DNA of 62,960 nt, filler included, from Sluysia triapertura (GCA_046118255.1; 5 parts of 5 records of this genome joined end to end with filler, not necessarily neighbours in it); one strand, 5' to 3'; numbered from the whole stretch's first letter, positions 13,200-62,960 are shown. Notes: generated from the sequence alone by a model not told the origin. Numbers and translations are program-made.

Positions 13200-13320
13200 T
13201 AATAATTTATTAACACATACATAAATCCTGTGGACGAGCCCACAATTGTTTAAGACTCGCATCACAGGCGGACTCTAAATTATTTAAACAATTGTAGGAC
13301 TTCTTTAAAGATCCACTTCA
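13200..13320 (+). repeat. Probable 3' end (R/U5) of a diverged LTR
   Basis: Contains the AAATCC-stem-GG(C/T)G(A/G)AC motif also present in the LTR at 42128. It is followed ~45 nt later by cacttca, comparable to cacttgca at the end of the 42.2-kb LTR. Confidence 0.45.
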
Positions 13321-15099
13321 TATTGTTGAGTACCTAAAACCTTGATTATTTATTTGATTAAAAATATAGATAGTATGTGTATCAAATTTCTTTATTTCTA
13401 ATCATTCCTTTTAATAATGTAATTATCGCATACATAAAAAAATTAATATTTTTTAAATTTATTTTATATTTTGATTTTTTATTACTTGATTAGATGATAA
13501 TAAATACGTACAGCAAACCCAAAAACGCTTTTTTAGTGGTTAAGATTGTAATCCTAACCCGTTAAATAAAATAAAGCAGAATATCTATGTGGTGATCCAG
13601 CATTTCACCGATAATTTTATTATATCAAAAACATGCGTAAAAAATACGTACCAAAAAAACATAACCAAACTAAACACATAACTAAGATGGGTAATGCTAA
13701 TCGACAAAATGTACAAACACAGACAGCGAATATATTCCATCCATTGATATTAAATCTGGACCTGGCTCTAAAATGTCTTCATTAAAACTTTCAAAGCAAA
13801 AAACCAGTAACTGCAGGAATAACACTTAAAATTAATTCCAAGTTTTGTACACAAAAATAATGTTTAACTAAAACTTCGTGAACAAACTTGGGTTGATTGC
13901 ATATATGTCCGATTTGATCTTATTATATTATCGTTAGTATAGAAACATCGTCAAAGTAACCAACAGTTACATCCATTTTAACATTTTACTAGGTATCATT
14001 AAAAACTGTAAACTTAAAATTATTTCTCACACCAAATCTAGCTGCTTAATTTTACCTCATAATCTCTTCTAAAATCTTCATGAAACCAAATTTTGAAAAC
14101 TTTTACTTTTCCTCTTCTGACATTAGCTTGATAGAAATGAATCTGACCAATTAAAACAACTGCTTCCCGCATCAAACTTTTCATTTTTCTTAATAAACGA
14201 AGTAAAACAGGAAAAGTAAAAACGATAATAAATAAATGCTCAAAATATTTTTACTCTGACTAACACGGTTTTCTTGACTGTTATTATCCACAAGATGTTC
14301 TCTAATACCAATTCCTTTGTCTTTACTACTATCGTGCTTTAGATACGCAGGTGGTTGATGAGTCCCTATGTAGTTTTATGAACTAATAGAATTCCATTCG
14401 AAATCCTAGATTCAAATTCGGCCACTGCAATTTAATATGATAAGTATCTACCAACTGTGTAGGTTCCTGCCACTGGCAATTCCATAATTCGCAAAAACTC
14501 ATTTAAGTCGACTTGTTTTACTAAATCACCAATAGGTTTCCTAAATTGACAATGATGACAATTTTTGTTAAATTTTTTGTGGAAAATCTGTGTCCATTCT
14601 TTTCAAACATTTATCATCAAATGATGTAAAGCTCTAAATGATTCCTGAAGTTTGTTGCCAGACTACAAATTTTTTCATTATTTTGTTTGATTTGATCAAT
14701 AATTCTTTTGAACCAGATCTCATTAACGATATTAAATTATTAATGATAATATTTACACTACTTTTTAAATTATGTTAAAAATTTTTAAAAAACTTCAAAT
14801 TAATAATAATGTTATGCTGTGGTTTTTCTAAGACCTAACCTACGACAAAACATTTTTTACAGGGTCAGATTACCGTAAACGTCTTACAACGCATAGTCCG
14901 CGTTTCTGCAACTAAATAAGTTAATAATTACCTTAATAATATTATTACAACCTTACAATCAAATTTAATACTATTTAATATTTAACAAGTACAGCTGCAA
15001 ATTTTAATATAATGAATAAAACTAAAAATCCAAAACTTTATTAATTAGAAATTCGACGAACACAAATTATAAAACTTACAAAGATTACGAAAAAAGGTG

Positions 15100-16700
15100 T
15101 AATTCGAATAAATTATAGCTGTTGAAGTTAAAACTGCATTTTAGCCTTTAACTTTTAATAAAACGTAAGATTATGCCAATTAACTATTTTAGATGTAGAT
15201 GTGTTTATACCAATAGCAGTTTGGGATTTATGCCTTTATGAAATAATAATAGGTATGGATGTTATAAGTAAATTAGAAAATATCGTCATTCATGGTAGAT
15301 TAGGATTTTTAAAGATGACAGCAAATGCACAAATATCGTTACCACAAATTGTATTAGAATCAACATTGAATGGAATATCACATTCTATCATATCTCAACA
15401 TAATCATCATCCACCGAGACCACCTACACCAATTCCAAATTGGAATAACCTAGACTGGTGGGATACGACGGTGACATCAAATTATGGATCATCAGATACA
15501 TCAGGAAGAGAAACTAATAATGATAATTATAGTAATGGTAATTATAGTAATAGTAGTATGTTAATAACAGGAATACAGAACAATAAATCTGTTTATATTA
15601 TTGCTCTAATACTATTATTTATGCAATTAATAGCAATGATAAATTCATATCCATCAAAATTAATATCATATACTAATACTACATAAGGACTCTTCGTAAA
15701 AAAATACTTTTAATCGATATTGGTCAATAAAGTTTGATATAAAAAAATGAAATCCATTCTTAACAAAACAACGTTAAGACATAAACAATATTTACTACTG
15801 TGAATATTCAATTTATTATAATACTATTTTAGCAATTTCGTTGCTTAATAATGTCACATATTAAAGATATGTTTAAAAATGTTAAATACTATAATATTAC
15901 TATTGAGGAATGCAGTCCACCATTAACGAGTAAACCGATAATAATCGAAACAAAGAGTAATACTATCAATACAAATATCACTACGTCAATTAAATAAAAA
16001 GGAGGTAATAATTATATCTTTATAATATCACTTGCAATATTTACTTTGCTTCATTTAATGTCTTCAATCTATTGCATAATTGTTTGTAAAAAGACATTAA
16101 AAACTTCAAATATGAGAAAAGATATGTTATTAGTGTTGTTATCAATAATAACAGTTTCGGATGGATCACGAAAAGTTTACAGATCTAAGTATTTTGATTT
16201 TTATAATTATGACGCAAATATACAAGTTAAAATAATGGATAATAGTATTGAAGCACAATGCATCTGCATAAATCCTGGTAGATTTAATTTTAGCACACAG
16301 AAAGTTTATAAACAATATATACCTATAGTACTACGATTCTAGGATTTTCTATAAAACTAGGTAAGAATCTAAGTTTACCTAATAAAAATCATTTACAGAA
16401 CATAACAAATGACTTTATAACAAACCTCTATCACGTCATATTTAGTTACTTCATTTTGACTTCGTTTCTTTTTCTTACAACAGCAATACACACTATATTT
16501 CAGATGTGGTGGTATTGTTATGTTTATGATACTTAAAATTATTATATTATTCAACAAAAAATTTATAATATATCTTTTAATTGTGGCTTTCACAACATTT
16601 ATTTTAACTTCGAATTTTATACAGTTGATACGTAATTTTTGATTTAAAATTTTAAGATAGAAAAAAATGAGATCTAAAAACACTGAAAGTTTTATTGAAT
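15100..16700 (+). mobile_element. 3' fragment of a retroelement related to the 41.7-49.3 kb element: aspartic protease C-terminal half followed by TM/signal-peptide segments
   Basis: YEIIIGMDVISKLENIVIHGRLGFLKMTANAQISLPQIV aligns with LDLIIGLDILDKLDDMVTHSKYGLMKFPQGAQLLLPQVV (ORF 47847-48269). Both are followed by a Ser-rich linker and hydrophobic segments. Confidence 0.75.
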
Positions 16701-18249: not shown

Positions 18250-19045
18250 AACCTAACATCAGCTTCAGACTGTCGATTTATTTCATCTTGCACAGATCTT
18301 TCTGCTTGATAACTGCTGTTTAAATCACGATTCTGATTGACGAATTGATTTACTATTTCTGAGTATTGTTTTTCCTATTCCAACGACAACTTAATTTGCG
18401 CAAAGTTTCATTAATATTACTGTTGACAATAAAAGTAACAATGGCAGCGGTGGAGTCTGAATTGTTTTTCATACTTCTGAATCCTCCGAATATGGAAACA
18501 CTGGACCATCGAATGGTTAAACTCATGTTGAACTATACCAGTGGGATTTCCAATGCAAGCCAATAATTGAGTTACGTAAGTTCCTGTTTCAAAGCCATAT
18601 CATAAGCCACATCATTTTAAAATACTGTAAAGGTGATGCGATAAAGCAATTGTTATTATCTGGAGCGAATGGTTTGAAACAGATATCACTTAACGTTATT
18701 GCTCGTAGTAATTCATCATTAGAGAAAGATATATTCGTCAAATTGTCTTGTAATTCAGCAACCTTTTTTAAGAGTTTTGGAAAATGCAGGTCCTAAATAT
18801 GGATATTTCGCAGACCATGTTTTGGGAAGAAATTATGATTTGTTCAGTTCGATAAAATCGGCCAAAATTATTAACGAAATAATCTTTATTTTGACGTGCT
18901 GTACTTTCCATTGTACTCCACAATACTGGATCAGTTGTTATTTGTGCTCGCATCATAGCTTATCAAACCAGCTACTAGAATTGGAGTAGTTATGCAGAAT
19001 ACTACATTTTTGGCCAGAAGGTTGCCCCATTTATGAAAACATAAT
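18250..19045 (-). pseudogene. NPC1: NPC1 (Niemann-Pick C1-like) middle luminal domain pseudogene fragment
   Basis: Minus-strand pieces FHKWGNLLAKN, TTDPVLWSTMESTARQNKDYFVNNFGRFYRTEQIII, ITLSDICFKPFAPDNNNCFIASPLQYF, DGPVFP and YQAERSVQDEINRQSEAD occur in NPC1 order (TT.PV.LWS...S.AR..K.YFD..FG.FFRTEQ; L.DIC..P..P.N.NC...S.L.YFQ; AERSIEDELNRES). Several frameshifts and deletions. Confidence 0.9.
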
Positions 19046-19909
19046 TAATATTGATTCTACTCGAGTTCCGATACGATTGTAAAGGCGGATAGAAATTCTA
19101 GCCTTTTTAATCAATAGAAGTAAATGTAATCTGATTTCAAAAGAACAGAAATGCCAAAATTGTGTTTAACAATTTAATGAAATGATATGCTCTTTATAAC
19201 CAGTTCTTGTAACAAAAAGTAACGATGGAATAGCACAAACACAGTTCAGTAATAATGGTAGTAGTAATCGTAATGGTAGTATCTTGTGTTATACTACGTG
19301 AATAAGATATTCAATAATTTCAACACCAGAAAATTGAAGAAAGAGATAATGCGAATAATAACAACGCATACATAAATACTTACATATTATATACAATCAA
19401 CAAGCAAGATTATAAAAAAGAATTAATTGTGAAGATAACAGAAGTAATAATAATGAACCTAAATTTATGAAAGGATTATTATGTATTTTAGTATGATGAT
19501 GTTGGAAATAATTACGAAATTATAAATATGAAATTATAATTATTATTAAAATGGAAATTATGATAATAACTATAACTCATGATTGTGTTTTGTATGAATC
19601 TGATTTGTTTAGCGTTTTGTGTATGAAATGTTAATTTGTGGTGGCTTGTGTATGTGTGAATACGATTTGTATAAGGTGTTGAAAAATTTTAATTTCTTTT
19701 GTGTTGTGGCACTACTTAATTTAGTAATATACTTATATAAAGTTGACTTGCAACGCTGCACGTTAAAGTATGTTAAAATTTTCGATAAATGATGTTGGGA
19801 ATTCGTAGATAGTACAAATTGTAAGGTGCAGAATGCATGAATCACTATTAATTGATTTAAGAATTTGTAACATAATATTCATTTACTTAAACTCTTCAAA
19901 TCTTAAATA

Positions 19910-20160
19910 AAATTGTTTTACGATTATAAGGCTTTATATTAATTTAAATTGAGATTTAATAGAGTCAATATAAATTCGAAATTTAACAAATACTATCCAA
20001 CTTTATTAAAATTACATAATCGTTTTAAAATGAAATCCAATAAAAACAATATGAAAGCAAACTTTAAGAACATAAAACCCAAGTAAAAAGAATTATACTT
20101 GACAAAATTATCTTAAAATAAGAATAAATATAAATTAATAAAATTTAATATCATTTTGGT
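19910..20160 (+). repeat. Dispersed AT-rich repeat family, copy 2
   Basis: Similar to 8990-9400 and 62310-62600. Confidence 0.6.
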
Positions 20161-20894: not shown

Positions 20895-21615
20895 TTATAA
20901 ATTCAAATATAAAATAGTGCTTTCAGATATTTTAGTATCAACCGTATACATTTGAACTGCACAAAATCTTTTATGTGAAATTCTGTTTTTTATAAAAGTT
21001 TCGTAAAAGAGAGGCAATAAATTAAATTCATTTTTAATATAGATAATTGCATAAACATTATATTTCGATTTCCATCTATCATGCGGTTTTAAACGTATAA
21101 AACTCCATCCCAAAGTCGTATGTTTACTATATGTTTCATAAAACGGATAAATTGGTCTAATATACATCGCATACATTGATAAATTCTCTGTTTTTTGGAT
21201 ATGCTGGATACAATTGCAATTTTAGTTTCTTCGAAATTGGATGACTTTCCCAATTATTTTGATACCAAAAAGCAGCAACTCCAATTATAAATAATGGAAA
21301 TAAAATACTTAACTGCACAAATATTTTTAAACCGACATATTCAAGCTGAAATGGTTTTAACTTTTCGGACATACATAGAGGCATTATATAATAACTTGGA
21401 AGAATAAATGCATGTATTACTAGTATTAATGTTGGCCGCTTCAAATGATATAATACAAAATTATCACTTTCATTCCCAAGCAAAAATGAAAAAATATTTT
21501 CTATTGTCAATCCAGAACATACTACAGCATCGGTTGGAAACAAAATTAGCAAGACCACCACGACAAATATGATAGAATAACAAAAATCTAGTTTGGAAAA
21601 TGTAATAGTATCCAT
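20895..21615 (-). CDS. TMEM129: TMEM129-like E3 ubiquitin ligase, N-terminal/TM part; C-terminal RING not found (partial gene or pseudogene)
   Basis: ORF 21157-21615: LFPTDAVVCSGLTIENIFSFLLGNESDNFVLYHLKRPTLILVIHAFILPSYY and WYQNNWESHPISKKL match TMEM129 (P.EF..AGLTV.N.....LGSE...FV..HLRR; W....W..HP). The continuation in another frame (YIKNEFN) is weak. Confidence 0.8.
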
Positions 21616-22365
21616 AATGATTTTTTAAAAGGAATTATTGATAAATTTTATTAAATTTATAAAACAAAAAATTAATATATAACATATAGAATAAAAATGT
21701 AAACCAAAATAAAATCAATTATAATTATAAAATATTAAAATATAAAAAGTTTTAATGCTTGACAAAATATTCCAAATTATTTAAACAACGCAATATTATG
21801 AAGAATGATATCTTCAAAATATTAATCAAAAATAAATTTTATAAGTATTTAGAATATAATTACATTAATCAATTGTGAAGGTAAGAGTATTAAATTTGCA
21901 ACTCCCGTTAATTTATATATGTTAGTTTGTGAAAAATAAACATTTTAATTTCAGTTATTTATTGAGGAAGTTATTTTATAAATATTGTTATTTTTCAGGT
22001 CTCTCAATGAAGGTTTTTGGAATAAATTTACCACATTTGGTACTGATGCACGTCACTTCCATGTTAGTTAAAAGATAAGGTAGTTGTAAGGATGTCGCCG
22101 CTTGAAGGTCAAGGGATTAATATTTTATAAAGTTTTTTGGATATTGGATTTTTATTAGATTATAATTTTTGTTCACAGAAAATTTTAATTTTATTTTAAA
22201 AAATCTGTTGTGAAATAAGAATATTTCAAAATAATTGTATATACATTTATTTATTAAACTAAATAATATAAATTTTATGCACATAATTGTTTATTGACTT
22301 TATACTTCAAGCCGAGTTGGGGACGAGCTACTGTACTTCTGACCTTGTGAGTTCTGAAACAAAAA

Positions 22366-23463: not shown

Positions 23464-23563
23464 NNNNNNNNNNNNNNNNNNNNNNNNNNNNNNNNNNNNN
23501 NNNNNNNTTAATTAATTAANNNNNNNNNNNNNNNNNNNNNNNNNNNNNNNNNNNNNNNNNNNN
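23464..23563. other. Assembly gap spacer
   Basis: 44 N + TTAATTAATTAA + 44 N. Confidence 0.97.
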
Positions 23564-23729: not shown

Positions 23730-24195
23730 CCCTGGTATATACTAAGCGAACTGACCCTACAGATAATTTGTTAGGAATAAGGAAAAATCTAACATTATCA
23801 TTAAGTTTAGAATTTGAATTAAATTGAAAAAATCATATAACTAAATCGATCACTAAGTTAAAATCCTTTTTTTGCAACAACACCTTAATAAAAGGGTTGT
23901 GCAATATAAATAAAATACTCTTTTCGATACAACATCTCAGCAAGAGAGTTGTGTAATTTATTTTCTTGACAACACCTTAATAAAAGGGTTGTGTAATTTG
24001 TTAAAATCAAAAGATTTAAGCAGTTGAATTGAGTTTATTTAGTTATATTGATTAGTAATTTAAGTTAATTTAATTAGTTGTAAAATCCTAATAATGCGTC
24101 TCCAGAATTGGTATAAAACGTATATATTAGGTGGACCGATCCCTCAGATAATTTGCTGTTAAGTGTAAGATAAATTGTAAAAACACCAGCAGTAG
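23730..24195 (+). mobile_element. Solo/partial LTR related to the LTR at ~41750-42231
   Basis: aaatcctaataatgcgtctccagaattggtataaaacgtatatattaggtggaccgatccctcagataatttg aligns with 42128-42200. It carries the same caacacctt..aagggttg hairpins, a partial duplicate of the 3' block at ~23740-23770, and no adjacent PBS. Confidence 0.8.
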
Positions 24196-26567: not shown

Positions 26568-29500
26568 TCCTGCCTTTAATTTTCGAAATAGGATTTTAAA
26601 CGTTTAAAATTAATTTAAGTATATTTTAAAATTTGTCTCCAAAGAGCAAATAGAACTTAAATAAATAAAAAATTTTCCAATAAAGATAGACGCCAAATGT
26701 AACGCTCTAGACACGCAGAATTTATCAGTGAAATTGAAATTATAAAATTGTAACTTTACGAGAGTGAGTGAAAAATTTGTTGGATTATATATCAGTCTTT
26801 AGCCAATCACATTCGTCCACATATACTAATAAAATAGTTGTTTTTTATAAACAGCTAATACTAATAAGAATTAAATTTTGAAAAATAATTTCTTTTAAAT
26901 AATTACTTAAATTACTTATCCTAAAAATGTCGTGCCACCAGAATACAGAAATTATGATAATTTGTGGATATATTTGCAACTCTGAATTAAAGGAAATTTA
27001 AAATTTTTAGCGTCATATCTATCCTAATGATGATATATAAAATGCATGGCATGAAATTTTATTTCCATTTAAGAATATAGCACCTTGTGAACTACTATTA
27101 GGACCATATCATTTTTAGAAAGTAGCTCAAAATATCTTGAGGCAAATTTATCACACCTTTCAGTTTTGTGGCAAGCTTTTTATGGACAAATTGAAATATA
27201 TTATTAAAATAATAGAATTCATAAAATGGCAAACATTTTCAGAGCCGAAATTTATAAAATTTCAGGGCTTACTTGGAAACTAATTATTGGTTGTTTCACA
27301 TGACCATGCAAACTCACAAATAAATGCTTTTGAAAATACGTTGAAAAAAGAAAGATAAACTGAAAATATAATTCTTCATGCAATAGAAAATGTAGGAGTT
27401 CATAAAAAACGAAGAAAATAAATGATTACTTATGTCAAACTCCTCTAACGTTTCGTCGAAAAAAAGTAATTCGATGATTATTGATAATTATAATTATTAT
27501 GTGCAAAAAGACGAACATAATAATTGAACCAGTGATGAATTTAAAAATTGAACAGTTCATTTGTATAATTTCGAAGGTGTCATGGGAGACACTAGCTGGA
27601 GTTATGAAAGCACATTGTGAATTAGGAAAAACAATAATGATGTAAAATTTGAAGACATGATTATGAGAATGGACACATTATTACAACTTAAAGATATTAT
27701 TTTAGATTTATTTTAATACATAGTTGTATTATATATTATTAAACATAATTTCTATTCAGTGTTTTTGTTTATTTGAGTAGTTAATTCTAAAGTTCATAGA
27801 AAATTTATAAAAAAGCATAGTAATTTTTGTTAATTAGATTGATTAAAATTTCAACAAAATCCTGTGTGGATGACAACTTCAATTAATCAATATCCATTCT
27901 TTAATTAATTTTTGCCCAAATGAAAAAAAGTTATCTTACATATTAATAATTTGCCTTATGGTATCCAATTCGGCATAATAGTTATAAATGGATTTTACAT
28001 AAATGAATTACACAATTTAATTGCGAATTAACTAATTTCAGATACTGTCGATAGTGAAGTTGGCTTGATTTTTCTATCCCATATACGCAATAGATAGATG
28101 ACTTATTTTCATCTTCGCAATCTAAATGTCCATCAAATTCAAAATTTAAAAATTATTATTAACTCATGAACCTAAATTAAATTATATAATGCATTGGCGT
28201 ATCATCCAAGTGTATAAGTATTTTTAAAAAATATATAGATTTTAAATGAAATAAGTGTTGTCAGGTAGCACTAAAATTCCAAACAAAGTTTAAAGTCATA
28301 ACCCTTTAAAATCCTTGAAAATAACATAATAACACTTCGAAATTATTTAAAAATCATTTAAAAAATTTTCGAAAAAGAAAATTCACTTCTAAAAATTGAA
28401 TATAAGCTTGCAGAATGTTCTAGAACTTTATTATTTAGTATTATATATTTCAAGATATTGTAGGTAAATTTAAAGATGGAGATCAAAGTAAATAATAAAT
28501 AATCGTATTTTAAAATATAAATAAGTTTCAAATAATTACTTACTTACAAAAGTAATGTATACAATTTTATTTTAAAGTGGTATAATTTGATTGGATGGAA
28601 ACTGGTATATAAACCAGTGAAATTTCAGTCAAGTTCAGAATTTAGTCATTAGTATTCAATTTGAGTTTTTGTGATATTAATTGTAGCCGATGAGTAATTC
28701 GTCACCATCTTGTTTTATTTATTCTAAATAATTATATAATAAACTAGTAAGATTAAATCAATTGTAAAATGTATTGTATTAACACAAACTTTAAAAACAG
28801 GTAAAATAATATTTATAATTGCTATTTTGTCCGATTGAATGAGAGCTAAAATCATTTATACAATTCATTAATATTAAAATTAAAGGCCTAAAAACTGTAC
28901 TGTTCTAACAACAATTCTAATTGTGATTTTATATTTATCACTTGATAATTCATTTTTACGATTTGATTTAATCATTGTTGAATCTATTCGTGTAAACCTT
29001 CTAAATTTTTTGTATTGAAAATATTAATTACGAATTTGTGAAAAACTTGGTGTATATTGGTGTCACACTTTAAAATGCATTTAGACATTAAATAATGACT
29101 ACTAGATATTTCTCGGATTCTACATATACGAAGAGTTATCATAAATATTAAGTTGCAATATTCGAAATTTAGAGTCAAATTAAATTCATATATTCGTTGT
29201 AGTTATGTGAACGTTTTAAGTCTCGTACTGTAACCGTATTTTTCAGTTTACCCTACATTTAAAAAATAATCATAAATTAAAATTTAATCTGACTAATTCG
29301 AAAAGGTTTAGGCAAAACAAAACAAAACAAAACCAAACATTCTAAATTAAAATTTCGTTTAATGTATTTTCTAATTTTCAGAATTTAGTTGTTTACTGAA
29401 ATAAATAGCTAATTTATAACGCTCATTTTAATATATTGAATGCTCTAAGATTGTACAAAATATCGACTGCTCCAAAAATAAAATATCACAATGTTTTAGG

Positions 29501-30252: not shown

Positions 30253-33200
30253 ATGGCTCGAAAAAAGCAAGAAGTAGCTTTACAAATTGAAATTAATTCA
30301 CAAGAAGAATGGAAAGATATGATGCAAAAAGAAGGATTATATGGTAAAATGATACATTGTTATTTTTGTAATAGTAATCGATGTATATCAAGATTGGTGT
30401 GGTCCTTGTAAAGCATTAATTAATTTTTTTCGTCGAATCAAAAACGAACAGGGAGATGAATTATTGAATTTTGCAATAGCTAAAGCTGATACTATTGATT
30501 CATTGGAGAAATATCGTGGTAAATGTGAACCTTGTTTTTTGATGTACGGCGTAAGTTATAATATTTTAAAAAGTGTATTTAATATTTTATAAAGTAACAC
30601 ACTATTTATATCATTTATAATTATGGCGATTGTTTCAAAATTATGAATCCTTTTAGCCAAGGAAAAATTTCATGCTGCCACAAATTATTGTTCAAATATG
30701 AATTTTACAGTAAATATGTTCAGCTAAGTTGCCATTCATCCGCCAGTTTCCAAATGTTAAGAATTGAACATAGATAAACTTTTTTGTATTTAATGTTGTA
30801 CGATATTTGTAACATAATAAAATCTTGATAATTTGCGTTATTTATTACAGGATAAATTTATCCTACATCTTCACAAATCCAAGTTCTTTTCAATCTTATT
30901 TGGCAAGAATAATAATAATAATAATAGTAGTAGTAAGAAAATTTATATTTCAATTTTTAAATTCTTTTATTCTCTCTTTCATTTTATCATTTTTTATAAA
31001 TTTGAAATATATTTCTCTTTATGTTCAGTAATTAATTGTTCCACATTTTATTTGGCATTTTTGAACATTGATAATTCAGATTTTGCTTTAAAGATTTCCG
31101 TTTTATTTAAGTTATTAGTTTTAATCTCTTAAAGAACTATTGCAAATTTCTCTAACATACAAATGTTGTGGTGTATTCTAATTTTTAGTTTAACAAAGTG
31201 GTTTCTGAAGGCTTCAACATTGATTTATTGGGGGGTATTGTACATTGATACAGAGTATTTGGAGTATTACTATTAATTGATACTTTAAAAATTGTTATTA
31301 AATTCAGAAATTTACGAAATTTATTGAAAAAAAATTTAAATAATGCTTAATACATTGATTAATTTTGTATTAAAATTTTGTCTAAAATTGCTTGTATATG
31401 CTACTGCCACATCTTCAATTGAACCTATAAATATAAATGTTAAAATGTAATCATCATGAATAAAAACTAATAACAGTTTAATAAAATTAAAATGTACTTA
31501 AGAAACGTTTTTATTGTCCATATAGTTATGTATTATGTTAATTTCAGATTCATCAAATTGTGAGCAAAAATGATTGATTGCATTGACCTAGGAATTGGTC
31601 ATAATTCATATAATCCGTGTGCATAAGGACAAGATTTTCCATACCTGATGCATTGGCCTGATATTGTAGTTTCGTATATACATAGTGCTGATTTAAAAAA
31701 ACTTGATTTATCATTGTTTTCTTTTTCATTAAACTTTCCACGAGAATAATTATGACTGTTTAGGTTCAAAAAATAACTTGCGTGTTTATCATCACTTATC
31801 ACACTAACTGGTCTTGAATGAGTAGTCGATAAAACTTGCTTGTCACTAAATGGCTCATTAGAAAAATTAGGTATTTGCATTACAGTTGAAATTGAATGGC
31901 CAATTTAGAGGTGAACCTCTGGTAAAACCGCTGCGTTGATCATTTGAGAATAAGTTATTTGTAAAGGATTGCACTGGTATAACGAATATTGTACATGCTT
32001 CTGCATTGCGTGACACTTATTTTTTAAATTAGCATTTTTATTCCTTTTATTTAATTTATCTAGATTTTCGACAGCTTTTTGTACAATAATTGAAGGCCAT
32101 GTATCATTATCTTTCGAAGTTGGAAAAGATCCACGTAATTCTGTATAACTACTTTTAATATTAGTACTTCGCTTTGTATCTGATAGATTGTAGATATTCT
32201 TTCTCAATCTAATCTCATCGGATAAATAATTATACGTATTAGAACTTGAGTACGTATGAGTTTGATTATGATCATCATATTCATAATCATAATCTTCATT
32301 ATAATAATCGTCGTTAAAACTGTTTACACCTTTAATTTTCTCGTGAGACATTTAGAACATCAAAGCTTGTTTTGTAATGTAATTTAAATTTAAATTTTAT
32401 AAATATAAACTTTGACTATTGCAATGATTATAAATTGAGTAAGTACTTTTTATTTGACGAGTTGATAATTTTAATTATTAAAAAGACTCTTTCACAAAAC
32501 CAAGAAATCAACTTTACATAAAATTATTATTACTATTATGATTTTGTCCAAATAAAAGATGATAAAACTACTTACAATTGGATGGCCAATAAAAACAACA
32601 TCAACTGAGTTGTTAGACAATAACTAATTTTCGTTTGCACACATAATCACTATTAGCTCAAAAATTAAAACTGTCAAATAATGACAGAGATAATTGCATT
32701 GTTGGAATGCTGTTGAAATATTTCTTTTTCTTACAATTGTGTAAAAAGTTTCTTTCTTAAAATTTTGTTAAAAAGTTTATTTGTTCTTTATGCTCTTTCC
32801 TTGTTTATTATTTGTATTTTGTTGAGAAAGTATGTTCTTTGTAATTCCTATTTCTTTTAATGATTCAAATACTTTACAGATCTTTTAACTGTTGTACAAT
32901 GCTAAAGTAATTGCTCGGGACTGTTGAATTTGGTTTCTGTTTTACAAAATAATTGTTATAATAGAAATAATACATGTTATAATAGAAATAAAAAGAAATT
33001 AAGGAAATTGGAGTTGTTGAAAGAAATTTCATTTATAATACTAATATATTTGAATTTGAATTGTAAATTTAATGATTTATAATATTATTTATGGTTTTAA
33101 TGTTGTAGGATGTGAGCTTAAAATTGTTTTGATATATTTACAATTTTGAATGATAAGGTTGGCCACCACAATTTATTATTTGTTTGACATAATTTAATGA

Positions 33201-45430: not shown

Positions 45431-45548
45431 AAAAGGGAAAAATAATCAACAAACGAAAAAGCCGACAAATATAATGACACAATTATTCGACAATAACAGT
45501 AACATATTAAATAATGCAATACCAAGGATAGGTAATTCGACAAGTAAT

Positions 45549-46700
45549 ATACTGTTTATCATAATACTATTATCAATGTTCGGCATAAATAGAACTAATG
45601 TAATAAAGGCATTTGACTGTAGCCAGCCACAAGTGAGCAGAAAATTTTCATTACTGGACAGTGAAGATTGTCCTGAATCAAGGCCAAATAGAATAACGGA
45701 AACCAATTATCAAGGAATTTATCTCTCAGAGAAAATAATTCAACAAGCTAAGAAAGGCGTTGATATAAAAAATATAAAATTAAATGCCTATTTTAACAAT
45801 AAAATCGATTTCTATTACCATTTAGGTTTGATTTCGCTAGAAAAAGTTTTAGGGATTGTTAATTAAACAAAGAAATTTTACGCACAAAATTGGCAATAGC
45901 TATTAGAAATCCAGACTTAGTCGTACCACTACTACCATTAGAAGAAGAAGTTTTCGGTCGACTAATGGGAGAGGTATTATACACGTATAAATGTAAAAAG
46001 GTAGAAGTGCAATTAAGGTCAACTACCGAACGCACAAATGAATCACCCATATTATACGATATTTTCAGAAATATACCTCGAACCAGTAACTAGAGTAATC
46101 TTTCCAAATAACAAAGTCAACAGTTAATGCACTGCTCTAATGTCATGGCACCGGAATATAGAATCGACGATAATTTACGGATAATTATTGGAGTCAAGTA
46201 AAAACTCCAGAAATAATAGAACTAACCGAATTAAAAGGAAGACTAAAATTTTTAGCTTCAAAAAATATACAAAATTCTGGCATTTATACGAATGACAATA
46301 TTCAAGCAGCCTGGCAGGAGGTATTATTCCCAATAAAAAGATCAAAAATATTAACTGAAATCGTAGATAAAGCAACAGTTGAAAAGAATGGACAAGTAAA
46401 TTTCGAATTACTATTGGGACCCGATCATTTTAAAAGAGCTGCACAAGATACATTGAAACAGATATGGGGAAAATTTTTAATAATAGGATAAGCACTTTCC
46501 GGATTGATAGAAATATATATAATTAAGGTAATAGCTTTGATAATTTCTCAAGCTTTTTCAGTAGTCGGAATTTATAAAGTCTCAGGATTTGCGTGGAAAT
46601 TGATAATTGGATGTTTTCCATTTTTGGCAAAATACCTCTTGCACCACCACGTAAATGCTCAAATAAACGCATTAAGAAAAGAAAGACAATATGCAGAAGA
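45549..46700 (+). pseudogene. env: Env: chuvirus-like (class III, gB-related) fusion glycoprotein, internally deleted and frameshifted
   Basis: Signal peptide ILFIIILLSMFG, then AFDC....SLLDSEDC, LNAYFNNKIDF, AIRNPDL..FGRLMGEVLYTYKCKKVEVQLRSTTE.TNE.PI.Y, EPVTRVI, CSNVMAPEYRI, and WGKFLIIG..LSGLI followed by TM segments. These follow the motif order of chuvirus G-like proteins. Confidence 0.8.
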
Positions 46701-46754
46701 AAGACTTATGGAATACTTAGATTTAGAAATTCAAAAGATGAATTTAGTAACACC

Positions 46755-47700
46755 AATATTAATACAATTTCATGATGGACAATTGGTGGACATCTATCTA
46801 AGAGAAAAACACTATCCAGAATAAAAAACAACTATTATTGGGAGGATATGGAAAATGATATTACAAATTGGTTGTTCAATGTGCTGCAGGAAAAAAAATA
46901 CAGGAACCTATGGAATTCACAGCAATGGACAGAATGGGACCATTACCAGAAACTATTAGTATATTATCGTATTTGCAATTTTTTGCCTAAATGGCCTGAG
47001 GCATATCCGATGCCGAATCAAAAGGTAGAGACCGTAGCGCAAATACTTGTAGAAAAATAATTTATAGATACGGCACACCAAGGAAACTGTTGACAGATCA
47101 AGGCACAAATTTTATCAGCGATATAATTAAATCAGTAGCGAAAATATTTAGCATTCTTAGAATTTATACATCATCTCATCATCCACAAATAGATGGATTA
47201 GTCGAACACTTCAACTAGACACTGATAAATATGATACAGTCATATATTAAAGATAGGCAATCCGATTGGGATTTGTACATTGCACCATGTTTATTCGCTT
47301 ATAGAAGTTCGTAAATCCAGCTACGAATTTTACAACATTTTATCAAATGTATTGACGGCATTCTAATATGTCTGTAGCTTTAGAATGGATACCACCAATG
47401 TCACAATACATGGAAACGCCAGAGTATGTGACAGTAATTCATGAAAGATTACAGGATGCATGGAAGCGCGCTGGCCTGCAAATAAAGTTTTCACAAGAAG
47501 CATACAAAGGTGCATATAATAAAAATGATAAAGAGCATAACTTTCAAATGTAACAAAGTACTTATTGAATATCCATTGACTATTCAATGGACAATCACCA
47601 AAGTTGCATAAACCATTTAAGAGACTATATGAAGTGATAAAAATTACTGATACTAATTTATTTGTTAAAGACACTACCAAAACATTTGTAGTACGTGTAG
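46755..47700 (+). pseudogene. int: Gypsy-type integrase, frameshifted
   Basis: HHCC region ILIQFHDGQ/GGHLSKRKTLSRIKNNYYWEDMENDI; KWPEAYPMPNQKVETVAQIL; RYGTPRKLLTDQGTNF; TSSHHPQIDGLVEHFN; DWDLYIAPCLFAYR; GPY/F-like PKLHKPFKRLYEVI. Confidence 0.92.
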
Positions 47701-47869
47701 GTGTAAAATAGCACCAAATAATAAATACAAGTTAAGAAATAGGGCAGTTACCAAATCACTATTAAAAGCTAAACCGAAAATTAAAGATCGTGATAAACCA
47801 CCAACAATACAATCATTAGTTGATAAACAAGTAATAATGATGCTTAATGTATCACTGGAGACCAACAAA

Positions 47870-48190
47870 TATTTTTCAAAACGTGCGTTTTAATGGTAGA
47901 TTGATCCGAGCTGTTCTAGATACCGGAGCTACCATATCTATAATACATTATATTTTTTTAACTACATGGGAACTTGTATTTATAGATCCACCACAAACAA
48001 TAATTTATAATGTTCAACGAGCACCAATAAATAAGAATGGAATAATACATACACATTTAGATTTAATAATTGGCTTAGATATACTTGACAAATTAGATGA
48101 CATGGTTACACATAGTAAGTACGGTCTTATGAAATTTCCACAAGGTGCACAACTATTACTTCCTCAAGTTGTTGTTCCATGTCTCAATAA
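47870..48190 (+). pseudogene. Retroviral-type aspartic protease located downstream of integrase
   Basis: VRFNGRLIRAVLDTGATISII (catalytic D at 47919) and LIIGLDIL. Confidence 0.85.
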
Positions 48191-49729
48191 TGACATCATA
48201 TTCCAACACCTGATCTTGAATTTAATAACCCGGTACCGCTGTCTCATCAATGTCAGAAGTAACAAGTGAATTTTCAGAGTCATCATCAGGAATTGGTTCT
48301 GTTGACACAGTAATGCTCACTTTTTCTAGTAAAAATAATTATAAGGCTAGGCAATCTTTCTGACATCATCATTATTAATATTAACGATTTTATTTTTAAC
48401 TTTGATTGGTACAGTTAAGCCAATAGATATTGAGTAAGATGAGGAATATAGAAATTTAAATGCAGCAATTAATAACGGAAATGAACAAAGAATATCAATT
48501 ACAGATATATATAATGAGTATCGGGAGTTAAAATTTAATTCGAAGAAAATGTTTTTACGTCATAACTTCGATATTTACTGCATCTATTTAGAACCATTAC
48601 TTATCGGAAAACCACATCATATAGACAAAACTCCACGTGGTTTGCAATATGCATATAGACCAATGCTAATAGCATTTGCCTTAGACACAAAAAGAAATAT
48701 AAGAAAGGTACGAAATTTAGTGCAAAATATAACAAACAAAGTCATAAATAATTGTACTTCTAAACTCAAGACTAGTAAACTATCATCTAACGACGCTACG
48801 TAAAAAAACTTACATTTTAGTTCATAAGTTGATCATTATCTCAGTAATTCTTATAGTAGTATATTCCATATGGATTATATTACATAGTTGATTTTAGTAA
48901 ATAAATTACGGACAAGTAACATTAATAAAAATTTGATACCTCTAATGATAACAATGATAATTACTACAGTCCAATGTAACTGTAATTAGAGAACAGTGCA
49001 AGTGATAGTATCTTAGCAATAGGCTGTGACAGTTGTAGGGAAATCACACAAAATTCATCACACTTCATCACATAAAAACATTTCACAGGTACACAGATTA
49101 TTAAACAAACTACTAAACTCTTCTAAAAAACAAACATAATCATCGCACATAATTATCATGAACTACAGCTATTATTATTACAATTCAAATCATATTAAAC
49201 TATATATAATAATTATAGTCATTGTTATATAATATGAATATCAAATAATAACTTTTATAATAAATTTCATATCAACATCAACAATTCAGTATTAATAAAC
49301 ATAATAACCACGTTATTGTTATCATTATTATTTCTTTTATCCTTATTATCAGTCTTTCTTTTTACTCTTCTGCTTTTCTCATTTTTATTTAAACAGTAAT
49401 GCTTAATCAGAAAGATCTCAAATTGTCAAAAGAATGTATCAAAAAGAAGCAAATGATGCGCCAATAAAATCATTGACACTGAGTAATGGCATATAAACAC
49501 GATTATTAGAAAGTTTTCTTAATACAGAAGATTCGGCAACATTAATGGAATCGTTTTTAAAAATTGAACAGCTTCAATTATTAGAAAATTCATTATCAAA
49601 AGAATCAACGATTAAACTTTCAACAATTACAAGTATTACGGAAATTATTATTTATTTATTTGCTAATGCCAAATTACATGATACTATGCAATATTAATCA
49701 AAAGTTTATCAATACATACCATTTACCGA

Positions 49730-51309: not shown

Positions 51310-51409
51310 NNNNNNNNNNNNNNNNNNNNNNNNNNNNNNNNNNNNNNNNNNNNTTAATTAATTAANNNNNNNNNNNNNNNNNNNNNNNNNNNNNNNNNNN
51401 NNNNNNNNN
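51310..51409. other. Assembly gap spacer
   Basis: 44 N + TTAATTAATTAA + 44 N. Confidence 0.97.
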
Positions 51410-54413: not shown

Positions 54414-55865
54414 TTAATATATAAGATATTTTGTTTTTTGGTGGGGTTGTTGTAATGGCCGTATGGTAAAAGTGGCTATATTTAAGTTTAAATTTAAAAT
54501 CGTCATTAAGGAAGAATAAGACTTAAGGTCTTGTAAAAGGTTATGATTATCAACGTTGTTATTAATCGACAAAATAAATTTAAAATAACGAGTACAATTG
54601 ATATATTTCACAAAAAATTTACTATTTATATAAAAATATAAAATCATATGAGTAGGATCATGCGTTACAAAGTACATTAAAAAGTTACTAGTTGTTATTA
54701 AATCAGAAACATAAATAACTTGAACATGATTAAAAAAAAAAGATAAAATTGAAAAGTTTAATGAACTTGGCTCGAAATGGGGTCGTATAATGAAAGTTTT
54801 AGCATAAAAAATAATATAGTCTACTATCTTATTGTAATCTTTAGTCGATGGAAACGTCTTTAAGTTTAAGCTATCATGTTGTATAACTTTATTGCGATTT
54901 TTTAAATTGATTTGAAAATCATTTAATCTAAAATGTGGTATAGTAATATTACGAGATATAGTTACATTTTTAAAATCTGACTCAAGGTCTTCGCTATGTT
55001 CTCTAAAGTAAAAATCATTTGGGTTAGGTAAGTTATAATCTTTTTTAAAGTAACATTTGAGTAAAATTTCGATTACAACTATTTCATGTACATGATGATC
55101 ATCATGGTTTACTTTATCGAATAAGTTTTCACTAACACCTTGATCTATGTGAAATACAAAAGGTTCCTTAGCACTTAGACTATCAACTACAATTATTTTA
55201 TGATCAAAATTGATAAAAATAGTATACATTAATACTTTAAAATTCGACTCGGTTACAGCATTAAAAAAAAACGAGTAAAACAGACCTTCGGATGCAAAAT
55301 TCAAATTCAAAAATAGAATATCAAATATAAATATTGTATGAACATAATTACCGACAAGTTCATATTTGCTGACAACCATTCCATAAACGTCGTGGTCTAA
55401 ATAGATCAGTTCTCGTAGATTCGAAAATCTAAATACTGCTGCATAGCATGTCTCTTTAATGTTTATAAACTTTTGGAGTATCATGCAAGTATGTTTAAAA
55501 GATAGTTCATTGTCTTCTTCCAAGCTGGAGGCGAAATTTGACATAAATCTAACACCTGAATATTTAAAAATTAAGGAAATTATAATCATCTTACCATCAC
55601 GAAAAGCAAATGTAATGTAGGGAAGTCGCAAGGCGAATCGTATATTAGATTCAGTATGGATCCAAGCAAGTAACATTATTTCTTTTGTGCATACTTCAAA
55701 ATTTAACATAAAATCTAAAAAATCTTTACTTGTATCATCTAATAGAAATATAGTAAGATTCAATCTTGGATAGTACTCATCGATTACAGCTCGAATTTTG
55801 TATTGATATTGACTTAAAAGATTCAACTCGTAATGGCTTGATTTTGGTATTGCTTTTTTATCCAT
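54414..55865 (-). CDS. Intact single-exon 483-aa orphan protein
   Basis: A 1452-nt ATG-to-stop ORF is very unlikely by chance at this AT content. No recognised motif; a decayed paralog lies at 58040-58950. Confidence 0.75.
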   Translation of the reverse strand: MDKKAIPKSSHYELNLLSQYQYKIRAVIDEYYPRLNLTIFLLDDTSKDFLDFMLNFEVCTKEIMLLAWIHTESNIRFALRLPYITFAFRDGKMIIISLIFKYSGVRFMSNFASSLEEDNELSFKHTCMILQKFINIKETCYAAVFRFSNLRELIYLDHDVYGMVVSKYELVGNYVHTIFIFDILFLNLNFASEGLFYSFFFNAVTESNFKVLMYTIFINFDHKIIVVDSLSAKEPFVFHIDQGVSENLFDKVNHDDHHVHEIVVIEILLKCYFKKDYNLPNPNDFYFREHSEDLESDFKNVTISRNITIPHFRLNDFQINLKNRNKVIQHDSLNLKTFPSTKDYNKIVDYIIFYAKTFIIRPHFEPSSLNFSILSFFFNHVQVIYVSDLITTSNFLMYFVTHDPTHMILYFYINSKFFVKYINCTRYFKFILSINNNVDNHNLLQDLKSYSSLMTILNLNLNIATFTIRPLQQPHQKTKYLIY

Positions 55866-56794
55866 AATACATCTTTTCTTTTATGTGTTATATACACGTT
55901 ATTAGAGTAGTCAATGAAAAACAACTGCTTATTATTTTGCTTTAAAATTTAATTTTTGCTACTAAACTAATTTACACGTATAGCTTTTTCAAAAGTTTTC
56001 CACCCTCAACCAATATTCAAACAAATTGACATAATAACGAAAAATAGTAAAAAAAATAACAAAGATAATAAAAATTAATAATAATAAAATAAAGTAAAAA
56101 ATAATAATAAAATAATAGTAGAAATAATAAATGATAATAAAGATTATAATAAAAATTAATAGTAATAAAATAAAGTAAAAAAAATAGTAATAAAATAATA
56201 AAAATAATAATAATAGTAATAAAAATAAAAATAAAAAATAAAAATAAAAATAATATCATTTCTGTAAACAAAATTGGGAGATTTATTTGAAACTATTAGA
56301 ATTATTGTAGTTATTATTAATCAATTAGCATTGTATTTACAAAATGATTTAATTTGATTTCATAACTGTAAGATACCTATGTGAATCATAATGACACAGA
56401 AATAGAATAAAAATATAAAAACTACACTAGAGTAATATATTTATATGGGACAATATTGACGATTTGAATGTGCTGATAAATATAATTTATTATAGAATAT
56501 TACATGAATTTCAAAGGGTTATAGTTTATTTAAGTAATGATATATTAATGTAGAGTGTAATGGATGTTAATGTTGTGTATTGAGATTAAGGTAGGTACAA
56601 CACTACACTTTTCAAGTCCAAATTGTCAACTAAAAATTATCTCCCTTACGTGGAAATTTAAAATACCCTCAAAATATCATTGCATTTGCTCCTAGTTTGA
56701 GCTAGGATTAAATTTATTGATTTAGTATTAAGTCATTTGCTTAATATATATATTCTATTGTTGTATTTGTTTTTCTGTCATCTAAATATACATT

Positions 56795-56999: not shown

Positions 57000-57800
57000 T
57001 TAGAAAGTCGATAATGAACGATAAGTTTAACGCAAAAAGAAATAATCTAAAGGTGAAATAAATTAATCACTCGAAGGGTAATATGATAATATTTCAAGGA
57101 TTAAAAAGATTGAGTTGATTTAAGTTTCTGACTTGTAAATCCTATAAGAATGTTTCCTTTAAGGTACAAACGTTTATTATGGGAGAACCTGTTTTTAAGT
57201 ATTTTATAAGAAATTTTCAAATTAAATAAAGATTTTTTATAAAAGATTATATTCGAGTAAACAAGGAGCTCATTGTTTATGTAAATTTCATCTGTAAAGT
57301 TATATTTATTCAATGATTTAGTGTACCATTTCATTACCTCCGAAAACTATTATTTGCCTGTAAAACTATATTTATTTATCGTCATGAATATAAATTGTTT
57401 AATATATATTTGAAACTTTGTTTAGTAAATTATTTAGTCTAATAAATTCGTTTTCATAGTACTATAGATGATTTGTAATAGCTTCTATAGCACCCACTTA
57501 TTAAAATGTATCTATGGAATAAACGCTAATAATTTATTCTGCTAATTAATCCAATACTACGTGAGTACTGTGCGGTATTCTAAAGACAAAATCTATAAAA
57601 ATGTTGTATTACCATTGAAATTCGTAGTTTTTAGAATAAAAAACTTAAACACTCTAGACAAACATCAGCATATGCTAACTCACTTCTTATAAATAAAATT
57701 CTGAACGAGTTTCAACGCAGTCTAATACAAAATATCAAATCAGCAAACAAATATATGAAACACATTTTAACTACACATTTTAACTATTACATAGCTTTAC
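57000..57800 (+). mobile_element. Highly decayed non-LTR RT fragment
   Basis: VNKE/KQGA (GVPQGS-like) near 57255 followed by FNDL..LFA near 57310-57360, in RT motif order. Many stops. Confidence 0.3.
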
Positions 57801-59526: not shown

Positions 59527-59607
59527 AGGCTGATAGGTCAGTGGCCAGATCATCAAACTGCACAGCTGTGAGGTAAGAGAGCCGGAGTTTGAATCCCCGC
59601 CAGCCCA
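59527..59607 (+). other. tRNA-derived sequence (SINE head or tRNA pseudogene)
   Basis: A-box TAGGTCAGTGG, D-stem GGTC/GATC, B-box-like GAGTTTGAATCC and acceptor pairing GGCTG/CAGCC. The anticodon arm is malformed (possible GCA). Confidence 0.6.
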
Positions 59608-60111: not shown

Positions 60112-62309
60112 TTAACATGTAAATTTAAAAATCAACAAAAGTGCATCCAACAATTAAGTATCTAAACAATATTACATTTGACACCCATGACATTGAAATA
60201 CTCTTATTACTCTTATTTTTTATTGATGAATTTGTATTTCGACTTGACGATATATATCCTTAAATTATTGTTAATATTACGCTCAGATAATTTTGATAAA
60301 GATTTTTGGAAATGTGGTCGTTACTGAAACTTGAATTTAAATTGTTGTTATTTAAATAGCAAAATAAATGTTGATTTGGAATCTGGTAATTTTTGATGTG
60401 CAAGATCTAAAATAATTTTATTCACTGAATTCACGGATTTGCTTTTGTACAATTATTGGTAATATATATTAATAAGAGGTTATTGGGAATTTGTTATGAT
60501 ATTCCCAACTTGCGTAATGGAGATTGTATAGTTGAAATTAGATTGAAATATTGTTATTTTAGAGTCTGTATGTTTCTGAGACGTTTTTGTAAATAATGAT
60601 TGTACTGATGGTGCGTAGCTGACAATGAAACAATAAAGCAATCATGTAATTGGTGTAAATTGTGATTTACTATTTTTGATTTAAAGATCTATCGGAAACA
60701 TTTTCATGTATAAGATTTTGTCTAACAAGTTACAAATAGATTTAACTTATCATTATTGAATTTTTACGGTGATGCATTGCAATGTAAGTTTAAATAACTG
60801 AACTGATTAGAATTGCTTTGATTTTGACTGATAACCATGAAAATATAATTACCTGAATTTTGGTACTTTTGTAAATAACAAATATTTGAATTATTTGATG
60901 AAGTAAAGCCTAACGACAAAGTAAATTTGTAACAACATAAAGGTAATTCGCTCAAAAGTCAGTTAAACTTATACTTATTGACAGTGATATTATTGGTATC
61001 CTTTTAAAATCCGTAGCCAAAGCGTATGCTATAATTTTGTTAAAAAATCGATAAGAAACTTCACTACAAACCTCTATATAAAAATTGATATTAAAAGATT
61101 TTGATGTAATTGTTGAAATTCGTGAATTAAATTGAAAATTCTACTATGTCGTGCGTGAAGATTTTGTCATTAGTTGATCATGTAATGAACTACACCACCA
61201 CAACACTGTAATTATACATTCATTTATTAATTAATTTCGAAAAAATATTTAGTTAAAATTCGCTTTCACTTCATTAAATACTTTGTTGCTTATTAAATTC
61301 ATAATTCGATACATTTAGTCAAATTAATCACTGTTATGTTCTCGAAATTTTGATCACTCTTAGATTTATTTTTTGTCAATTAATCATTCAATAAATAATC
61401 CAATTAAAATAACTAAGAATGGGAGCAAAATTCTTATTTTTAGTACATTATTAATATACTCAGATATATCGTTTACTATTATTTAAATCGATCCAAAATA
61501 ATTATATATACCATGTTAATAACACTTTAATTTAAATAGTACTTTAATTTTTAAATTTTTTTATATTTTTAAGATTAAAAATAAATTAATAGTTTTTTCG
61601 TAATAACACACAAACTTCAAGATGCTTCTATTTTGCAAAAGGATAATGTATTGCTTGATAAGATTTTCTTCATTTTCATAATGAAAAATGACTTCGACAG
61701 CATATTTCATATTTCAGCCTTATGACTTAAGAAATGATAAGCTGCAGCACATAAATTGACTACCATAAAACTAAATTTTAATTAAGAAAATTAGAAAGTG
61801 GCAACTATATATTACAGAATTGTGCATTGTATATTTTATGAATAAATAATTGAAATATGTGCAATAAAATTCGGTTATAATAAAACATTAAATATAAAAA
61901 TTCATATATTAATTCGTACTTTTATAAAATAAAAATATAAATAAAATTTATTACAAAATAAATGTAACAAATATAATAAAATACATGTAATATTTAATTT
62001 ATTCGAATATCCAGTAAAATCCTAAATAGAAATTTTAAATTAAAATTTTTAACAAATTATACAAATTAAACTTAATGCAGTGGAACCTTATGTATATGTA
62101 GTTATATTTGTATTTGATCTTATGTTTAATATTTAAGTCTATGCATTTTAAAGGTAATTATCATTTGAAATATTTGTAAAAATTGTATTGTAATAAAAAT
62201 GTATTTTGTAAAAGAATTTTAAACTTAATTCTCATTTTTAATAAAAATAATGTTAAAATAATTATTCATCTTAAAATAATTGTTAAAAAAATTACTAAGA
62301 TTATAATGC

Positions 62310-62600
62310 TTTAGTATCACTTCAAAATGAGATTCCATATAGTTAATATGAATTCAAAATTTAATAACAAATAACAATTAAATTTAAAGCGAAAATGTAT
62401 GAATAATCACTTTAAAGTAAGATTCTATAAAGACAATATGAAATTAAAATGTATAAATATCAAACCTTATAGTATGTCAATAATAGTAATATGTAATCAA
62501 AGTTTAAGAGTATTGTAATCTAGTAATACCATTTTAAATTGATATTAAAAAAAATAATATTAAATCAAAACCCAATAATATAAAATTCGAAATTATGAAA
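62310..62600 (+). repeat. Dispersed AT-rich repeat family, copy 3
   Basis: Similar to 8990-9400 and 19910-20160. Confidence 0.6.
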
Positions 62601-62960
62601 GTAAAAACATTGTTTATTACTATTATTTGATTGAATATCTTCAATATAGTATTATAACATAATAACGTAAACAACACTAGAATCAAGTATGTACTAAATG
62701 CAGCAAACTACTATAAAAATTTATTAAAACCTATAGAAAAGCCTACCGAAAGTTTTAATCTTAAACTTCGGGTTCATTATAGGTGAACCCAAAATTATAT
62801 TAAAAAAAATAAATTCGCTAGCAATTATTATACATATAATTTAATGTATAATAATAAATATGTAGCAAAATATTTCACAAGTCCAATTTTGAAAAGTATA
62901 AATATTCTGCACCTGATTTTATTTTATGAACATGATAAATAAATAAATGATAGTATAATG

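Follow-up and report, generated by a model that had tools for sequence, protein, structure and literature searches.

In a 62,960-nt stretch of DNA from Sluysia triapertura (GCA_046118255.1), hereafter the window, we found a stem-loop motif of about 55 nt that recurs in diverged repeats. Where its context is readable, the sequences tie it to the ends of Gypsy-type long terminal repeats (LTRs), and the function that we put forward for it is a proposal. The motif is real: the five copies from which the analysis started are all present, and our results support a selected, strand-specific RNA structure near LTR 3' ends. Artificial spacers join the five pieces that make up the window, and the copies are therefore not one locus. 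Its A+T content is 74%. Judging by the proteins recognized in its host exons and exon remnants (LRR, piggyBac-like transposase, NPC1, TMEM129, thioredoxin, UNK zinc finger and NDK), the window is animal genome. Copies are named here by their first nucleotide, and coordinates are collected in Table 1.

Results

Copies of the motif in the window

A sequence-only reading of the window had listed five copies of the motif, and its five strings were found where it placed them, all on the + strand. We described the motif as AANCC, at least six base pairs and YGRAC. This descriptor, composed post hoc with the copies already known, matched four times strictly and five times with one mismatch allowed; 200 local dinucleotide shuffles gave 0.02 and 0.08 matches on average. 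A covariance model trained on the five copies was scanned on both strands, with a rough calibration of E values. It recovered a further full copy from outside its training set, 57137 (27.2 bits, E 0.024), the best non-copy scoring 20.9 bits. There is also a 3' half copy at about 23733-23752, whose 5' part has been swapped for other DNA. Thus, the count of five was correct for those copies and incomplete. A second covariance model revealed no further copies in the window, which brings the density to seven copies in 63 kb, half copy included.

Two details of the original description were revised. The outer stem of 42128 does pair, with one mismatch instead of perfect complementarity, and the CCGAA..TTCGG pairing given as the inner stem of 62726 is a hairpin within its loop and not the counterpart of the other inner stems; in the shared register, the inner stem of this copy has two of four pairs. 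The copies represent at most five independent lineages, since 24083 and 42128 belong to one family and 57137, whose motif is 67-69% alike, possibly represents a distant branch of it. Of note, all seven copies lie on the + strand over four separate pieces (naive p 0.016, the copies not all being independent).

A fixed-length helix with covarying stems

All copies share a core whose 5' arm has 12 nt and whose 3' arm has 13 nt, that is, a helix of fixed length. Its outer part, P1, has seven pairs and opens with two C-G pairs; a 1x2 internal loop separates it from P2, which has four pairs and closes with G-C. In the five-copy set, 90.9% of the cells were paired and the covariation score was reached by none of 500 shuffles. 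Adding 57137 gave 61 paired cells out of 66 and double changes at 6 of the 11 pairs; again, no shuffle (0/500) reached the score, and slid controls were 27-53% paired. RNAalifold, run unaided on the six copies, returned the identical 11 pairs. Moreover, all 11 pairs are retained in 57137, with new letters. This out-of-sample copy is the stronger test because the five-copy structure was read off those same sequences.

Conservation is largely confined to the motif. Similarity between copies within it ranged from z 3.4 to 12.3 in all 15 pairs. By contrast, no likeness was seen over the 37 nt upstream (z -1.3 to 1.0), and likeness over the 60 nt downstream was rare, with a best z of 3.1 for 24083 and 42128. 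The six-copy helix contains five G-U cells versus two A-C cells, which favours the + strand as the RNA. Eleven letters are invariant over the six copies. An unpaired A occupies the eighth position from the 3' end in four of the six; in 40073 it is the seventh, one position earlier than in the other copies, and 42128 has a G. Single-sequence folds including flanks were unconvincing on the + strand (z -2.3 to 0.55), and the minus strand did better in some copies. A four-copy MAFFT alignment, in which 40073 was misaligned, was discarded. Altogether, the earlier suggestion of a selected RNA structure, with stems that diverge and still pair, is well supported by the covariation, the out-of-sample copy, the + strand G-U pairs and the read data described below.

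The loop measures 16-29 nt and opens with a pyrimidine run ending in CC, following the overall pattern YCC...GGU...AAA; both the GGU and the A-rich loop end are found in five of six copies. The loop GG has two options, namely local pairing with the loop CC (two to three pairs, longer in 62726) or pairing of GGU with the ACC of the 3' tail (four to six pairs, a six-pair helix being possible in 24083). From these sequences, the loop-tail fold-back is weakly supported. The loop of 13223 is the most divergent, and at 13233-13298 nearly all of it is complementary to the 12-14 nt just downstream, which provides a competing fold. In addition, a hairpin follows most copies (single p 0.01-0.38; Fisher p 0.004 over six, in a window picked post hoc), and its 3' arm coincides with the probable element end in 24083, 40073 and 42128.

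Read data reveal motif sharing beyond the flanks

We compared contigs from two public runs, X1 and X2, with positions 40036-42400. X1 looks like the same species as the window, its unique contigs having no differences to it at a depth of 9-19, and X2 is a relative. Summed contig depth, which is not a copy number, was 61,893 in copy 42128 (122 contigs), compared with 740 (23 contigs) at 42090, 38 nt upstream, and 2,332 at 42206. Exactly before 42128, 41 contigs turn unlike, and one X2 contig of 235 letters matches 42126-42204 only. Because contig similarity begins at the motif, the motif is common to far more LTR variants than its flanks are. Over 40036-40193, the summed depth exceeded 200,000. 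Contig pieces from both X1 and X2 end at 40181-40182; a unique contig, after 56 unlike letters, sets in at 40183. Copy 40073 is hence located 59 nt upstream of the point where a very abundant repeat ends. Three differences fall within motifs (40084, 42169 and 42175), among 40 of the 158 difference rows. At these three positions the window copy deviates from the shared pattern and represents the minority state.

LTR context

Sequence comparison shows the link to LTRs for two of the six full copies, 24083 and 42128, and for the half copy. Only 42128 combines an LTR, a tRNA primer binding site (PBS) and gag and integrase remnants. In this Gypsy element, which bears env, 54 nt separate the tail end from the PBS downstream. 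We take this PBS to be of the Lys3 type; its letters 12-18 are partly minority states in the read data. The closest database relatives of the element are Gypsy-type pol proteins, with the order RT-RH-INT, and no reverse transcriptase or RNase H was found in its internal region (42594-48270), nor a 3' LTR of the element. Copy 24083 lies in a related LTR whose upstream 300 nt resemble those of 42128 (z 7.7). A glycoprotein-region remnant, 68% alike, is located at 27089-27296, 2.9 kb 3' of this LTR. The sequence-only reading had placed two copies in LTRs, one of them about 50 nt before the LTR end, in agreement with these data. The half copy is followed by an LTR-end-like ...AACA at 23794.

An LTR context is likely for 40073, as its repeat probably ends in an LTR end, which fits 6 of 7 letters of the consensus in PMC3601003. 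For 24083, 40073, 42128 and the half copy, the element end lies 42-59 nt past the tail. No such end could be placed for 13223, 57137 and 62726, for which neither upstream likeness (z -0.3 to 1.9) nor a pol remnant was found.

The conserved tail matches the tRNA T arm

The best-conserved block of the motif is its unpaired 3' tail, Y-G-R-A-C-Y. With G-U pairs allowed, it is complementary to tRNA positions 52-57, as given by the Rfam tRNA consensus, in 41 of 42 cells over the seven copies. Among 62 six-column blocks, the tail is the only one that reaches 35 of 36 cells, the next reaching 26. The computed tail-tRNA duplex has -7 to -13 kcal/mol, versus -1 to -6 kcal/mol for the fold-back. The tail of 13223 includes the opening six letters of HIV-1's primer activation signal (PAS) as printed in PMC3185550. 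A scan for a eukaryote-type tRNA-Lys returned six loci and no usable tRNA.

Discussion

Building on the observed helix, + strand, conservation and position in one full element, we infer a series of tRNA-related steps. We tentatively favour, with confidence well short of even, a cis-acting RNA in the R-U5 region of Gypsy-type LTRs, where a PAS-like site with a folding switch would aid the start of reverse transcription. The fixed helix would act as a scaffold that presents the single-stranded tail. Once the 3' end of the primer tRNA is on the PBS and the T stem is open, the tail would pair with tRNA 52-57. More speculatively, the tail ACC might beforehand be folded onto the loop GGU in a masked, pseudoknotted state; tRNA binding would then free the loop GG to pair with the loop CC. 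Such a two-state switch would explain why two pairing options of the loop GG are both conserved. Since tRNA letters 52-57 are near-universal, families with different primers could share one tail. The position is also compatible, as R and U5 of Drosophila gypsy together measure 244 nt (PMC1635307) and 110 nt before the PBS can therefore be R-U5.

Several points weigh against this reading. In 42128, the only copy with a PBS, the tail gives five to six pairs and fails at tRNA position 51, in a comparison based on the Lys3 T stem of PMC3675109 and not on the host's own tRNA; position 51 is paired in four of seven copies. This copy also has no primer-specific tail extension and falls short of the approximately eight primer-specific pairs of a PAS. 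A site ending at 13242 within copy 13223 binds the T-arm motif better than the tail does, and such matches therefore arise easily. A six-letter match with wobble is expected at about 1 in 128 per register, and the idea of tRNA pairing was post hoc, following several others. Simple transitions or the decay of CpG could explain the C/T variation of the tail. The fold-back, computed on four lineages (42128 excluded as sister of 24083, and 57137 not included), gives a Fisher p of 0.008 when letters are shuffled, 0.023 with random 10-mers as the control and 0.14 with ACC fixed, and 13223 fails to fold back. For three of the six full copies (13223, 57137 and 62726), no LTR context was found. Finally, the HIV-1 PAS model itself is disputed (PMC3185550), and the second tRNA site of gypsy is dispensable for cDNA synthesis (PMC1635307).

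The motif can nevertheless be compared with known primer-contacting sites. The HIV-1 PAS consists of eight letters in U5 that pair with tRNA 48-55 once the T stem has been opened at the PBS; until PBS binding releases it, the signal is masked in cis (PMC3675109, PMC1865047, PMC3185550). This signal and the tail are both short, GAC-containing stretches about 50 nt before a PBS, in which pairing to the T arm is possible and perhaps masked in cis. Unlike the primer-specific HIV-1 signal, the motif offers six letters for tRNA 52-57, extending into the T loop, with a register shifted by two. Its tail hangs from a separate hairpin of fixed length, and the mask, if any, would be a local pseudoknot. 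Because the primer-specific length test failed, we do not classify the motif as a PAS. The proposed tail pairing can also be likened to the contact between U5 and the T loop in avian sarcoma virus. T-arm-pairing sites outside the PBS are known from Ty3, with its bipartite PBS, and from gypsy, with a second tRNA-Lys2 site (PMC5371799, PMC1635307). These are likewise Gypsy-group elements, whereas their sites, of 11-12 letters, sit at the RNA's extreme 3' end, and the accessible text of these papers describes no conserved hairpin there. Should the tail indeed bind the T loop of the tRNA, retrotransposons would offer the disputed retroviral PAS mechanism a compact, independent parallel that is easy to assay and comes in thousands of natural variants for testing.

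A second possible account, which we consider rather unlikely, is a stem-loop of the R region comparable to the HIV trans-activation response element (TAR) or poly(A) hairpin, serving in protein docking, minus-strand transfer or 3' end formation. TAR-like R hairpins stand at the extreme 5' end of the transcript and are bound by a trans-acting protein. The head, bulge and tail would then be conserved as protein contacts, and the fixed helix length and the conserved unpaired purine suit a protein site. Long R regions typically have conserved stem-loops (PMC3601003), and a TATAAA/CATAAA followed by a GT-rich stretch after the 40073 motif would place it in R. However, AATAAA follows two of seven copies and any variant four of seven, compared with 17% and 53% of random 60-mers, and no poly(A) hexamer follows 42128. 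Hexamers are not enriched after the motif, which lends no support to the suggestion of a polyadenylation signal. Moreover, this account leaves the match of the tail to the T arm unexplained.

It is less probable still that the motif is a compact pseudoknot acting by its own fold in Gag binding, packaging, dimer formation or template organisation. The precedent would be the 5' pseudoknot of Ty1, which is required for reverse transcription (PMC3681743). As a pseudoknot, the motif would likewise lie close to the RNA 5' end of an LTR element; the Ty1 pseudoknot belongs to a Copia-group element and spans a long 5' region, whereas the motif is short and common to families with unalignable flanks. 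The pseudoknots predicted for Ty3 (PMC11381356) are different structures. Loop GGU and tail ACC occur together in five of the six full copies, and the pair adjoining them varies between copies. On the other hand, the signal beyond the ACC core is not significant, 13223 again being the exception; the loop CC/GG hairpin competes, a 3-nt linker must span a 12-pair helix, and the Y-G-R of the tail is left unexplained.

The boldest alternative, to which we give a slim chance, is that the motif would found a new class of self-acting RNAs, as a module portable across unrelated LTR families; at its most extreme, it would be a self-cleaving ribozyme with a new fold, or else a cutter or switch that tRNA triggers and that determines the RNA end. 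Catalysis is conceivable because the motif is compact, sharply bounded and abundant and has invariant unpaired letters.

Barely more than a marginal prospect is a block to 5'-3' exoribonucleases that would protect the element RNA in the manner of class 3 exoribonuclease-resistant RNAs (xrRNAs) of plant viruses (PMC12397905, PMC7668246). At 54 nt these are of similar size and share the order of parts, with P1, internal loop, P2 and an apical loop that pairs, in the motif only putatively, with the 3' tail over a short linker (PMC12397905), and the U-N-Y-A-A after the loop GG in four of six copies could be a T-loop. However, the J1/2-L2B G-C pair, the L2B T-loop and the AGY in J1/3 do not correspond: J1/2 is one letter in the motif, with no A-G/A-C that has an L2B partner, and the linker reads Y-G-R. 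Identity with class 3 xrRNA was rejected on these missing tertiary contacts. Such a stop within R-U5 would also cost the element its 5' repeat, and no report of class 3 xrRNA in retroelements was found in our full-text search.

Equally improbable is a self-cleaving ribozyme of a new class. Ribozymes have a precedent in LTRs in the hammerheads of plant retrozymes (PMC4918200), where a conserved RNA motif likewise occurs in Gypsy-related LTRs whose other sequence is unconserved. Retrozymes are non-coding, whereas one host element here carries gag, glycoprotein and integrase remnants. The small size, abundance, sharp bounds, invariant letters and possible pseudoknot would suit a ribozyme. Against it, the position following the helix varies (C in four, T in two and A in one of seven copies), and cutting near the LTR end would remove a repeat that a coding element needs. 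The sequence-only reading had raised self-cleavage, and no known ribozyme core is present.

This holds for each family considered. HDV-like (hepatitis delta virus-like) ribozymes are nested double pseudoknots with an invariant catalytic C after P4, and hammerheads are three-way junctions with the hammerhead core. The former were rejected because the helix order is wrong on either strand, the post-helix letter varies and Rfam gives no match; the latter, because Rfam gives no match and no core is seen by inspection. HDV, hammerhead and twister, of which no core was seen by inspection, gave no fit, and neither did pistol, k-turn, B box, downstream promoter element (DPE) and attC.

A promoter block at the DNA level, with pairing incidental or inherited, can hardly be credited and is already largely refuted as the sole account: the TATAAA in the loop of 24083 and 42128, with TCAGA/TTAGA 34 nt on as an initiator-like word, is not in the loop of the other four copies, and the double changes and one-strand G-U pairs are left unaccounted for.

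The motif is apparently undescribed, in line with our database and full-text searches. As the sequence-only reading had advised, it was compared with Rfam. No real match emerged: the whole window at E<=5 gave two rows, both chance-level, and three 160-nt stretches gave two, zero and two rows, all far under gathering scores. Pattern scans yielded 55 matches in viral contigs and 17 in metagenomes, all chance by eye, and a stricter pattern none in the viral contigs or in genome contigs. Run on 51 of 74 pattern-scan loci (near-duplicates left out), the covariance model found none at E<=1; the most tempting locus, L065, lies within a reverse transcriptase reading frame and was rejected. Related elements sought by protein amounted to zero, zero and two distant loci, all without the motif. 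Neither Rfam nor the viral, prokaryotic and metagenome collections thus hold a match, and as these collections contain few animal genomes, the negatives are limited accordingly. No description of the motif was found in the open full-text literature, a coverage that excludes subscription journals. Of the earlier proposal of an undescribed cis-acting retroelement RNA, the RNA structure stands and the searches are consistent with novelty; the LTR link holds for only part of the copies.

Little has been mapped of the conserved RNA structure of Gypsy LTRs in animals. A survey of LTRs lists end repeats, AATAAA, GT-rich and TATA-like words and, in its accessible text, no such fold for these elements (PMC3601003). 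A motif of this size across unalignable families provides a handle to find and group solo LTRs.

Other features of the window

Table 1. Positions of the motif copies and of other features, counted from the first letter of the window.
Feature	Position	Strand	Details
Motif copy 1	13223-13274	+	Head AAAU; P1 13227-13233/13262-13268; P2 13235-13238/13256-13259; tail 13269-13274; 11/11 pairs
3' half copy	23733-23752	+	3' arm and tail; model E 0.32, second model E 0.081
Motif copy 2	24083-24137	+	P1 24087-24093/24125-24131; P2 24095-24098/24119-24122; tail 24132-24137
Motif copy 3	40073-40123	+	P1 six pairs; tail 40118-40123
Motif copy 4	42128-42182	+	P1 42132-42138/42170-42176 (one mismatch); P2 42140-42143/42164-42167; tail 42177-42182
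Motif copy 5 (new)	57137-57189	+	P1 57141-57147/57177-57183; P2 57149-57152/57171-57174; tail 57184-57189
Motif copy 6	62726-62789	+	P1 62730-62736/62777-62783; weak P2; tail 62784-62789; long hairpin within loop
LTR related to the 41.4-42.2 kb LTR	23795-24191	+	Limits approximate; probable end ...GCA at 24191; no PBS after
3' end of very abundant repeat	40036-40182	+	Ends ...GAACA; 5' part cut by piece edge
5' LTR of Gypsy-type element	41370-42236	+	Start uncertain: repeat depth climbs at about 41300-41370; TGTT start at 41706
Hairpin with 3' arm at LTR end (U5 inverted repeat-like)	42195-42234	+	p 0.096 singly
PBS, tRNA-Lys type	42237-42254	+	First 11 letters clear; resembles the gypsy Lys PBS as printed in PMC1635307
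Broken internal region	42594-48270	+	Gag-like stretch; glycoprotein (chuvirus-type) 45069-46641; integrase 46776-47550; aspartyl protease 47841-48269
Host exons or remnants	765-950, 1887-2072, 18592-18959, 21157-21624, 30353-30589, 31602-31904, 36914-37165		
Artificial spacers	11481-11580, 23464-23563, 39936-40035, 51310-51409		100 nt each: 44 N, 12-letter all-frame stop, 44 N

The related LTRs contain a small bulged hairpin (CAAC-A-CC / GG-GTTG, variable loop) in three copies each, at 23875-24000 and 41775-42042. These hairpins sit 100-350 nt upstream of the motif, contig depth also peaks there (193,271 at 41983), and we read them as a possible second conserved RNA signal.

The gene order of the element at 42594-48270 (gag-like, glycoprotein, integrase, protease) is an unusual Gypsy layout. 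Among its relatives, the glycoprotein precedes pol in one (P0005), and a second protease follows the integrase in two (P0004 and P0010). Protein searches with the glycoprotein open reading frame and with one of the host exons gave no matches. The WIxxQGGW word that closes 45069-45440, before the glycoprotein, resembles the BH2 motif of Bcl-2; a Bcl-2-like reading of this segment was rejected, as the likeness found no support from Pfam, PDB or atlas searches.

An AT-rich repeat with a period of about 90 nt occurs three times (8966-9148, 19868-20079 and 62248-62466); copy 62726 starts 260 nt past one of them, and the other two are without the motif. A tRNA-like stretch at 59527-59607 (Rfam 23 bits, sub-threshold) has an inverted partial copy at 34879-34928, and both are probably a tRNA-derived short interspersed element. 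Finally, an open frame of 488 codons on the minus strand (54414-55880) has no Pfam match.

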